64,000 nucleotides of DNA. Origin: Euglena gracilis. Lineage: Eukaryota. Positions 42,201-45,200 of the stretch are shown here, in pieces. The first letter of the stretch is position 1. Each line of letters starts with the position of its first letter. The stretch lies in assembly GCA_039621445.1 (NCBI GenBank), contig CP154954.1, positions 4,454,714 to 4,518,713 on the forward strand. Reading direction: 5' to 3'. Position numbers and translations under genes: made by a program. The notes under the pieces are model-generated. The model was not told the origin of the DNA and searched no databases. It was given only the letters and a program-made list of their open reading frames with translations.

Positions 42201-45200
42201 TCAATGAGTCTGCTACTGGTTTCCAAACAAAGGACACACACTCAGAGAGTTGTCCTGCGACTCGAAGTCCATGAAGGTCAAGGGCGGGGTCCACTGCGGG
42301 TGGTACGGGGACGGGCTGGCCAGCGCCACACACGCCGGCAGCCCCAGGGCCAGCTCCTCCGCTGCGGCGGCGGGGAAGTCGTCCGCCCTCAAGCACCCAA
42401 TACCTATATAGATATTATAGAATAGAATATAGAATATGGAATATAATAATATAATAATGATAATACATATACATATATTATCTTATATTATTATATATAC
42501 TATAAGGTTATTATTTTATTATATTGCATATACATGTACATAAAATAATACATATGCTATGTATACACATATTCTATATAGATACATATTGTATATATCT
42601 ACGTACATAAAGAATATGGTCATCATCACAAATCCCAGGCCCAGTCACAACGGGTCAATGCATTGGTACTTGTCCAGCCCGCCGTTAGGGAAGTACCGCC
42701 GGAGGCGGAGGGTTTGCCACGCCAGCCGCGCGTAGCAGTCCGCGGCGGGGCCCCGCGTCGCGTTGAGCCCCTCCGTGCTGTGCCAGCGCCGCTCTGTGCG
42801 CCCAAGTGACGCCCGGGCACCCCGGCATGCCGCGGTGAAGAGTTCTCCGCGAGCAGTGGTGGAAAGGCGAAGCCCCCTCAAACCTGTCCCCCACCCCCAA
42901 AAGTTGCTTCACCGAAACGAACCAAATTTTGGCCGGGCACCAAGGGCCAGTTTTTTTCCAAAATACTGAACTTTTTTGTCGAAATGGGCTAAAAGGAAAA
43001 ACGTTGACCTTTTGAGAGGATTGCTCCAGCGTGAAAAAGCCAGCCGGTGTCGGAAGGGGTTCCAAATGCACGTGGAGGTGACAGCATCGCAGGGTCATCA
43101 ACTCAACACTTTGGCGACAACATCAGGTTATGGCATTTAATCGATTCTCCAAAAGGAAGAAGCACAGAACCCACTGGATACGCAACACGTGGTCCATAGC
43201 TTCCCCAATTTGGCCCTGTGGAAATTGAAATCGGGGTTGCCAGCCCTCAGAAACAATGACATATGTGATGCCTGGGGAACTCTGAAGTGAATTGGGAAGG
43301 CAGACAGGGCGGCAGGTGGGCAAGCCATGAGAACAGCCGGGAGGCGGTGGGGCCAGCGTCTTGTGTTGGCACCGAGGGGGGCGTGGTCACCTGTGGGCGA
43401 AGACCGGCAAAGTGGGAAGAACACACGGAGGCAGCGTGCATTCCTGAAGAAAGGGGGAAAATGACTGTTTAACTCTCGGCTGACATAAAAGTATGTATTA
43501 ATACATATTTGTACATTCATTTGTGATGCATATGTTTGTGATCAGAACCTTCAAATAACGTTCGCAAGTTGGTCAAATAAGGTTCGTTAAAAATTTGATT
43601 CGTTGGTGGGTTGGTTGATTCGCTTTTTTTTCTTACACAAGGCAGATTGAATCTTTACCCCCTTAAATGTGCATATCAAAACATTAGGTATATATATTGT
43701 GTATACAACAGCATACGTGTACATTAAAATATAATCATATTGCAATAATTACTGAAGTTTATGCATTATAGACCATGATCCCCCCGTTGTCCTGGCCAGG
43801 ACCCCGGGGGGCCACTCAGGGGGCGGGGTCACTTAAGGGGGGGTCGGAAAACAAAATTTTGATATCACCCCCCACCATTTTTGGGGGGAATTTTTGTGTG
43901 AAATTCGTGATCTACACCATTTTTTTTTCCATCAGGTCAAAAAAAAATTTCGGAAATTTTTCAAAAAACAGAGGTGTTGTCTGACCATTTTAACTTACGA
44001 AAAAATTGATCCATGTTCCGGCCGGAGTCCGGCCATACCCCAGAGGGCCACTTAGGGGGGGGGGGGGTCGTTTGGGGGGTCATGGTATATGAAAATGGTA
44101 CACGTTGTGTGACACACAGCAATAGCAATGTCTATGGGTCCATGACATTACACATTCACACGGGTATATCTTCTGGAATTGTCAGCTTCGAGGAGACTTT
44201 GACATCGAGTTGAAGACATGGAGACATGGAGATTCTGAGTTGAAATTGATAACAAAAACCGGAAATGCGGCACCCCTCCCGGTGGAATACTGCAGCGGCG
44301 GCACCAGTGGCAGGCACACGCCATAGAGAGAAGGGGGCTGAAGACGGCCAGCGCGGTGCAGTGGGCGAACGCCACGAACAACACGTCCAGCGCGGTGGTG
44401 CTGTTGGGGACGGTGGCAGGGTCTGATATGAGGGCAGGTGGGGTGGGGGGGTGTCGGGCCCCCAGACAGGGGGGGGGGGGGCACCCTAAACAGTGGCACA
44501 ATCCGACCCCCAGCCCGGCAGTGCTGGCCCGAAAGATGTTGTTGGTGAAATCAGCCAAAATGCCATTTTGGGCACGTTTGGTGCAAAATTTGTCAAAAAA
44601 GCCAAAAAAAATAGGCAAAGGCGAATCGGGCAAAGACCATTCCCCGGACCCCCCCTGTGTGCACTGTGGCTGTTTTTTGGTGCCTTTTATCCCCTCTTCT
44701 GGCCTGGCGCTGTTGTTCGCCTCTGGCCCTTTTGTCTGTGTACGTGGAGGTGGCCGGAGCCTGGCGGGACTTACCTTGTTTACAACGCCGGCCACCAAGC
44801 CCCCGCCAGGCACATACTCCACTTTAGTTAGGGGGGGGTCCCGTCAGTCCAAACCCCTGACGGTAGGGGGGAGGGCGGTCAAGACACCAAACCCTCCGGT
44901 CCAAAGCGGACATCCCCTTTCTACCCTGAAACCCCTCCTTACCAGGTTTTGAATAGTGCTGAGCTCTTGATAAGCGCGCACCCACCCCTTCATTGAACCC
45001 CTCCATACACACCGGCCCACTCCATGGAGCTCTTTTGCCGGAAATGCATGGGTTTTGTGCCAGAAACAGGGCGCCGGTGGGTCGAAAAACGCTCGTTTTC
45101 GGCTCAAAAACAGTTTTTCTGGGTCCGGGAGGCCAAAAAACATCGTTTCGGGCAGCAAAAATTTTTTCGATTTTTTTCGACTTTTTTGACCCGGTTTTGA

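Follow-up and report, generated by a model that had tools for sequence, protein, structure and literature searches.

The DNA analysed here is a 64,000-nt stretch of Euglena gracilis contig CP154954.1 (hereafter the window). The interval under study, 44412-44708, contains part of a MITE (miniature inverted-repeat transposable element) of a family denoted C, of which a 429-bp copy lies at 18846-19274. A preliminary description of the window held that this family occurs once as a passenger insertion, the 429-bp copy, and once as an entire intron, 44412-44708, lying between an exon that ends with ...ANNS and an exon that begins with VPNSTT. The interval consists of 5 nt of flanking DNA, 220 nt from the left side of a family C element and about 70 nt of a repeat present in thousands of copies. 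We consider, with a probability of about 0.6, that 44412-44708 forms no intron by itself and likely lies in a conventional GT-AG intron, 50169..44423, that a relative of the element forms a whole intron elsewhere, at 13517-13630, and that the 429-bp copy is nested within another intron.

The family C part of the interval is a left half, truncated on the right, of a probable hAT-like MITE (44417..44636, plus strand). Its terminus, CAGGGTCTGATAT, occupies 44417-44429. The strings cited in the preliminary description are in place, with CAGGGTCTGATATGAGGGCAGGTGGGG beginning at 44417 and with CCTAAACAGTGGC and GCCATTTTGGGCAC common to 44412-44708 and 18846-19274. Within the window, blastn matched positions 1-46 of family C with 44417-44463 (81%, E 1e-5) and, collinearly, positions 171-230 with 44555-44611 (78%, E 1e-6). 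Local alignment of 44417-44636 on positions 1-255 of the 429-bp copy gave 173 identical columns (z 29, 0/300 shuffles as good). The homology that had been proposed between the two intervals is thus far above chance over 44417-44636. The likeness nevertheless ceases at about 44636, after approximately 220 of the 297 nt and 72 nt short of the proposed 5' end. Truncation at about 44636 also explains the missing right end better than the earlier view that the other terminal inverted repeat and the target site duplication had decayed. Immediately left of the terminus, the 8 bp at 44409..44416 read GACGGTGG and include the 5 nt, 44412-44416, that had been said to separate the element from the exon.

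Sequencing depth indicates what lies beyond the truncation point. DNA run X1 and RNA run X21 were read over 39000-52000, X21 for about 5% of the run. X1 depth is 850 in the bin 44208-44641, showing that the family C fragment is low-copy. It rises to 1,576,271 at 44672 and 1,344,566 at 44729, with a mean of 1,064,068 in the bin 44642-45075, single-copy bins being at about 190-250. From this leap past about 44636, a high-copy repeat must start just after the family C fragment and span both 44708 and the '...ANNS' frame. The repeat is unrelated to family C and was placed at 44642..44996 from X1 depth, its right limit being approximate. Further to the right, 2.8 tandem copies of a 163-bp unit at 45064-45514 lie in the most abundant repeat of the region (depth about 7.9 million versus about 190).

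The 429-bp copy of family C (18846..19274, plus strand) is intact at both ends. Its termini, CAGGGTTCGATA... and ...TATCAAACCCTG, match in inverted orientation at 11 of 12 positions, and its ends form a duplex of -38.4 kcal/mol (z -6.2). The target site duplication reported earlier was read as a perfect copy of GTCCCGGC at 18838-18845 and 19275-19282 (8/8). The copy is indeed a passenger, since it sits inside intron 19338..18755, itself a CAG...CTG element. A 13-mer terminus was searched over the whole window, and only matches with at most 2 mismatches were treated as informative: with up to 3 mismatches there are 14 matches for 12.6 expected, a number reached in 36 of 100 shuffles, and hence no enrichment. 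Six matches have at most 2 mismatches, and together they make up three plus/minus pairs: 13522/13627, 18846/19274 and 44417/46703.

By its sequence, family C, whose copies end in CAG...CTG and are flanked by 8-bp duplications, appears to be a hAT-like MITE of the non-autonomous kind, the superfamily being assigned by duplication length and terminus only. The traits of a MITE that were found are inverted termini, sizes of 106 and 429 bp, several related copies and 8-bp duplications. Pfam was searched at curated cut-offs with 422 open frames and segments (119 + 133 + 150 + 20) and returned no family at or above the cut-off, with five sub-threshold matches only. In particular, no Pfam family was found in the open frames across the family C copies, and neither a hAT transposase domain nor an autonomous partner was found in the window. 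Rfam gave no family anywhere on the 64,000 nt. The family C end had 0 matches in a metagenome scan, and the terminus string retrieved only unrelated primer matches from the literature.

The left part of the window carries a gene whose introns can be solved against a protein. With the open frame 13358-13705 (minus strand) as query, and considering longer proteins only, we retrieved eukprot:EG_transcript_694, of 1253 residues (P0005). Exact-match chaining and tblastn placed 810 of its residues in order on the minus strand, from 20856 to 29. The gene for residues 1-847 thus occupies 29..20856 in about 30 exons, the other residues being encoded past the start of the window. The window copy and the database protein differ at a few residues. 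The 810 ordered exact residues identify the window, as far as sequence can tell, as nuclear DNA of Euglena gracilis or of a very close strain. The alignment comprises 32 blocks and 31 gaps, of which 18 gave exact junction solutions; the other 13 were dropped as unsolvable owing to residue differences or very short blocks.

A GT-AG or GC-AG intron is possible in none of the 18 solved cases. In a study of the Euglena splicing code, nonconventional introns are defined by a 3-nt spacer followed by CAG at the 5' end, CTG followed by a 5-nt spacer at the 3' end, and an acceptor exon that starts with a purine (PMC12501133). Eight solved introns carry the full code (CAG at +4..6 and CTG at -8..-6), three carry half of it and seven neither part. 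Across the full-code introns, on average 4.1 of the 8 nt that precede CAG agree with the 8 nt that follow CTG, compared with 2.05 of 8 in 40 shifted controls, and the next exon base is a purine in 8/8. The intron that hosts the 429-bp copy (18755..19338, minus strand, 584 nt) is one of those with an exact solution against P0005, between exons 19424-19335 and 18756-18706. It has CAG at +4..6, CTG at -8..-6 and termini CAGGCTTC... and ...GAAGCCTG, and its flanks, CTCACGAC and TGCACGAC, agree at 6/8 positions.

The same gene contains the family member that coincides with a whole intron. A 106-bp element of family C type lies at 13522-13627, between flanks GTTGCCCT and GCTGCCCT that agree at 7/8 positions. 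BLASTP of the genomic frame against residues 379-420 of P0005 leaves a 38-residue gap, flanked on either side by 100% identity. This gap corresponds to 114 nt, that is to 106 + 8 nt, and the intron is therefore 13517-13630 (minus strand), the element plus one copy of the duplication. GT-AG or GC-AG ends occur at none of the 9 junction positions allowed. CAG stands at +4..6, TTG, one change from CTG, stands at -8..-6, and the first downstream exon base is A. In the predicted RNA fold, nt 4-12 form a stem with nt 101-109, so that just 3 nt at one end and 5 nt at the other stay unpaired (z -2.2). The left 40 nt of the element are identical to the left end of family C at 28 positions (z 6.7, 0/1000 shuffles). 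At the right end little besides the terminus is shared (24/40 identical, z 1.7, 89/1000 shuffles). Judged from these alignments, the link of the 106-bp element to family C is firm at its left end and limited to the terminus at its right end. The same terminus family thus occurs as a transcript-verified whole intron. The preliminary description was right that such a member exists, but it is found at 13517-13630 and not at 44412-44708, about 31 kb away. Likewise, a link by homology between mobile elements and whole introns holds in this window generally, though not at the instance chosen to illustrate it.

The case of 44412-44708 itself depends on its proposed junctions and on the frames that they would join. 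Coding potential was scored with a codon model trained and calibrated on the verified exons of the neighbouring EG_transcript_694 gene, without cross-validation. These exons have a GC content at third codon positions (GC3) of 0.90. Read in frame they score 0.83 ± 0.35 bits per codon, as opposed to -0.61 ± 0.38 when read off frame. Six exon-like segments were found in 18,288 nt of verified introns, the highest scoring 13.0. The VPNSTT frame looks like a real exon, by codon bias only. The '...ANNS' frame (44709-44843) does not: it scores -0.43 bits per codon with a GC3 of 0.62 and lies in the high-copy repeat. A 6-codon piece of it, EANNSA, reaches 9.2, which is within the range of verified introns. 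A single open frame runs over 44148-44843, and all three minus frames are open over 44182-44485 and 46745-46901; open reading frames are therefore uninformative here.

The model of the preliminary description, a complete nonconventional intron made from one family C MITE and removed to join AACAACAGC to GTCCCCAAC (44709/44411), has several attractive features. The family C terminus lies 5 nt from a frame of high GC3 and the next base is a purine, in agreement with the published acceptor rule; the 297 nt preserve the reading frame; and EANNSA, although only 6 codons long, has a GC3 of 1.0. As first drawn, the interval has CTG at -8..-6 and CAG at +3..+5 rather than at +4..+6. Sliding the junction by 1 nt brings CAG to +4..6 and gives a near-fit to the code, which counts against our interpretation, but the slide leaves a 3' spacer of 4 nt, not 5, after CTG. 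The joint 44708/44412 is absent among the 15 joints listed out of 758, and this listing is compatible with such a joint. Other observations speak against this intron. The repeat stands at about 7000 times single-copy depth at 44672 and 44729, on either side of the junction. The ends do not pair (-15.1 kcal/mol for a shuffle mean of -14.5, z -0.2, 113/300 shuffles as good), and the fold of the whole 297 nt is no better than those of shuffled sequences (z +1.3). Likeness to family C falls 72 nt short of the proposed 5' end. Preservation of an open frame is no evidence, because 44148-44843 is already open without splicing. With '...ANNS' in a high-copy repeat, no coding bias upstream and unpaired ends, the 297-nt intron is unsupported, and we regard its existence as very improbable.

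A conventional intron accounts better for the surroundings of the fragment. On the minus strand, strong codon-bias segments were found at 51692-51820 (score 41.7), 50174-50341 (62.6, GC3 0.93), 44328-44417 (25.8, GC3 0.97), 42666-42842 (40.7) and 42249-42386 (46.5). The VPNSTT segment would correspond to a putative exon at 44290..44422, with approximate limits. A putative upstream exon, encoding ...LRTGTALP, would occupy 50170..50341 and end at CCAG/GTGTGC. The GT at 50169-50168 and the AG at 44424-44423 connect these two frames of high GC3 in phase 1 on both sides and delimit a candidate GT-AG intron of 5747 nt (44423..50169, minus strand). The donor is CCAG/GTGTGC at 50170/50169 and the acceptor is ...CCCCACCTGCCCTCATATCAG/AC at 44423/44422, with a pyrimidine-rich tract. 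Read on the minus strand, the 44417 terminus is ...CATATCAG/ACCCTGCCACCGTC, so that the acceptor AG lies inside the family C terminus. It is created by two base differences from CAGGGTTCGATAT of the 18846 copy. GT-AG solutions in frame are also available at the next two downstream junctions, and one of the introns so defined is AT-rich.

The candidate intron, which has 44412-44708 at its 3' end, is full of nested high-copy repeats, with X1 depths from 1.7e5 to 7.9e6 in the bins 44642-50283. Apart from a tandem-repeat artefact at 48695-48775, no exon-like segment rises above noise in 44418-50166. We conclude from the sequence that 50169..44423 is most likely one conventional GT-AG intron, putative as yet, belonging to a gene with weak or no expression. 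Among its many passengers the family C fragment would be the last, its terminus happening to supply the acceptor AG. A nonconventional junction at 50176/44411 was also tried and was rejected as being out of frame with the high-GC3 frame.

Several observations weigh against this assignment. RNA depth in X21 averages 0-0.3 over the single-copy bins of the putative exons and 0.1-0.3 in 44208-44641. The 88-residue frame 44151-44414 has no credible match among 1.84 billion protein representatives, and 50174-50341 has neither a protein match nor a Pfam match. In the codon model, which derives from one gene without cross-validation, the plus-strand mirror of 44338-44415 scores 28.0 versus 25.7 on the minus strand. 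Conventional introns at 42-52 kb are moreover unexpected given 0/18 in the neighbouring verified gene, although in E. agilis about 28% of introns are of this kind (PMC12501133). Pfam has no match for the putative exon 44290..44422 either. A HMMER hit of the 88-residue frame with E 4e-10 was discarded, as it involved 3 bacterial repeat proteins in which a 22-residue motif was counted up to eight times. Runs X15 and X17, labelled 'RNA?', were rejected as expression evidence and treated as low-coverage DNA, their depth following the DNA repeat profile. A leaf-litter metatranscriptome, X20, with a small share of sampled words (0.06), was likewise given no weight.

The same silence would be expected if no functional gene existed at 42-52 kb, the exon-like pieces being relics of a dead gene or duplicated fragments and the interval transposon debris that is never spliced. 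X21 depth is essentially zero over all the putative exons, two exon-like pieces have neither homologues nor a protein in the E. gracilis transcript set, and the 422 frames and segments yielded no Pfam family. However, the RNA reads cover only about 5% of a single run, and the transcript set may be incomplete. Five segments on one strand have GC3 values of 0.88-0.97, three consecutive pairs of them can be joined in frame by GT-AG introns, and such a codon bias decays once selection stops. We therefore hold the loss of the gene to be unlikely and retain the conventional intron of a weakly expressed or silent gene.

Inside this candidate intron, a second element related to family C lies at 46282..46703 (minus strand). 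It was recognised from a terminus with 1 mismatch, inverted repeats and a core match, and it has no recognisable left terminus. Its terminus, read leftward from 46703, is CAGGGTTCGATGT. The preliminary description had correctly seen the family C terminus at 46693-46703, where ATCGAACCCTG is the reverse complement of CAGGGTTCGAT, but had taken it for the end of the intron, whereas it belongs to this second element. The core 46416-46604 matches positions 117-306 of family C (73% over 202 nt, E 1e-25, blastn), and the subterminal inverted repeats 46282-46304 and 46664-46686 are 96% complementary. Past its 13-nt terminus, the 46282-46703 end resembles neither end of family C (z 0.1 and -0.9). At 46748-46757, 44 nt farther right than the 46703 terminus, there is a third terminus-like site, CTGGGTCTGG, with 9/11 positions in common with the 44417 terminus. 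Between the repeats there is a single-copy island of about 320 nt; one X1 contig, of depth 159, covers 46690-47054.

The termini at 44417 and 46703 could in principle bound one unit of 2287 bp, which together with 3 + 5 nt would make a nonconventional intron of 2295 nt, 46706..44412, whose upstream exon, short or not recognised, would end at 46707. They are one of the three plus/minus pairs among the terminus matches with at most 2 mismatches, and the same terminus family acts as a nonconventional intron at 13517-13630. The flanking octamers, GACGGTGG at 44409-44416 and GACAGCGG at 46704-46711, agree at 6/8 positions, an equivocal match for a target site duplication; a binomial estimate of at least 6/8 by chance is about 0.006. 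The ends pair terminus to terminus with 3 and 5 nt free (-15.8 kcal/mol, z -2.8, 4/300 shuffles), and removal of the unit plus 8 nt links ...LPPA to VPNSTT in frame. This last point counts little, however, since all three minus frames are open over 46745-46901 and two over 46704-46744. The sequence 46707-46796 scores -0.21 bits per codon with a GC3 of 0.60, nothing exon-like is found upstream of 46706, and RNA evidence is absent from the X21 reads. Furthermore, family C-like cores occur twice in the unit (at about 44510-44636 and at 46416-46604), which rules out 44417..46703 as a single family C copy that other insertions have interrupted. Between the 46703 terminus and the 46748 site, a micro-exon of 36 nt (46707-46742) was considered and rejected, being out of frame with the donors 50170 and 50176 and weak in codon bias. 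The large composite intron is in our view distinctly improbable, and two separate family C-related passengers within the GT-AG intron 50169..44423 remain the preferred interpretation.

Other repeats of the window were surveyed as well. Three further CAG...CTG elements, at 1119-1438, 47028-47593 and 55810-56102, have inverted termini matching at 11-12 of 12 positions and flanking 8-bp duplications of 8/8, 8/8 and 7/8, respectively; shifted-flank scans gave 0, 2, 0 and 0. The first of them lies inside intron 2003..1005 of the EG_transcript_694 gene. A second repeat family, E, was correctly reported in the preliminary description to occupy intron sequence: 10998-11183 matches 12704-12871 (75%, E 2e-22) and 62883-63051, with identities of 72-75% overall and a best E of 3e-26. 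The copies 10998-11183 and 12704-12871 are parts, not the whole, of introns 11643..10906 and 13436..11744. An interstitial array of about 25 TAGGGT copies, the TTAGGG telomere-type repeat, lies at 53927-54075 and is preceded by a (TTGG)n run at 53870-53925. Microsatellites and short tandem arrays at 56100-56640, 38003-38139 and 7500-8070, consisting of (TA/CA)n, (GTCA)n and a repeat translated as PPTHDWH, give long spurious open frames. The codon-bias scan of the minus strand found more exon-like segments in 26263-37958 and 55058-62284, for instance 34303-34823, 37740-37958, 57799-57972 and 61383-61529. Their codon usage suggests that other genes may be present in these two regions, and Pfam has no match for the segments.

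The structure of 13517-13630 suggests how a MITE could behave as an intron. The inverted CAG...CTG termini of the element would pair in the pre-mRNA. The nonconventional splicing machinery of Euglena would then place its cuts 3 nt upstream of CAG and 5 nt downstream of CTG. In this way the element and one copy of the 8-bp duplication would be removed, and the reading frame that existed before insertion would be restored. Nonconventional splicing in Euglena may thus be, in effect, a precise excision of hAT-type MITEs at the RNA level, a proposal to which we give even chances. Under this proposal, because the 3-nt and 5-nt spacers add up to the 8-bp duplication, the published code would be equivalent to inverted termini plus one duplication copy.

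A MITE origin of nonconventional introns was proposed by Milanowski et al. in 2014, when, according to the text available to us, no euglenid transposon was known (PMC3935182). The splicing-code study puts nonconventional introns at about 72% and conventional ones at about 28% in E. agilis, calls the origin of the former unclear and mentions MITE-like elements (PMC12501133). Repeats resembling duplications at intron junctions are described in the sections at hand of a 2024 review (PMC11282704). By a term search, the main text of the chromosome-level assembly paper leaves hAT, MITEs and introns unmentioned (PMC11252322). In the literature searched, which left out subscription journals and supplements, neither the link of 3 + 5 nt to an 8-bp hAT-type duplication nor a named element family was found. 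As far as the accessible portions of these papers go, a MITE origin is hypothetical in them, whereas in the present window one intron is linked to a concrete element family whose 8-bp duplications are perfect.

Intron 13517-13630 resembles the euglenid nonconventional introns described in the available text of these papers (PMC3935182, PMC11282704, PMC12501133) in having no GT-AG ends, CAG at +4..6, pairing ends with 3 + 5 free nt, a purine at the start of the acceptor exon and 'slidable' repeats. It differs from them by TTG in place of CTG at -8..-6. At its 5' end, the interval 44412-44708 lacks the features that define such introns.

The termini of the Ac/Ds elements start with CAGGG or TAGGG, and these elements make 8-bp duplications. 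Family C is similar to non-autonomous hAT elements such as maize Ds in its 8-bp duplications (8/8 and 7/8, and 8/8 in further elements) and in its short inverted termini starting with CAGGG. It shares with hAT MITEs a small size (106-429 bp), derivatives by internal deletion and mutual nesting; no autonomous partner or transposase gene is seen in the window. A further parallel is offered by the introners of Micromonas, Aureococcus and dinoflagellates, in which, in the sections of the review at hand, a DNA transposon with inverted termini inserts into an exon with a duplication and becomes an intron (PMC11282704). Introners, as that text presents them, are spliceosomal, their GT/GC and AG coming from the element and the duplication (PMC11282704), whereas here the ends follow the euglenid CAG/CTG code and the spacers of 3 + 5 nt equal the 8-bp duplication.

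The 44412-44708 locus itself is, on our interpretation, ordinary transposon debris. The MITE origin of nonconventional introns has already been published as a hypothesis, and the window offers a concrete case in its support. The correspondence between the 3- and 5-nt spacers and the 8-bp duplication would make this hypothesis testable genome-wide and by knock-in. If RNA-level excision is indeed what nonconventional splicing achieves, every new copy landing in an exon, whichever way round, would from the start be an intron whose removal restores the frame. Family C would then have been caught at several stages, as a nested copy with a perfect duplication, as a 106-bp deletion derivative serving as an intron and as truncated debris. 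The 'slidable' 84% of Euglena introns would also be explained, their direct repeats being old target duplications.

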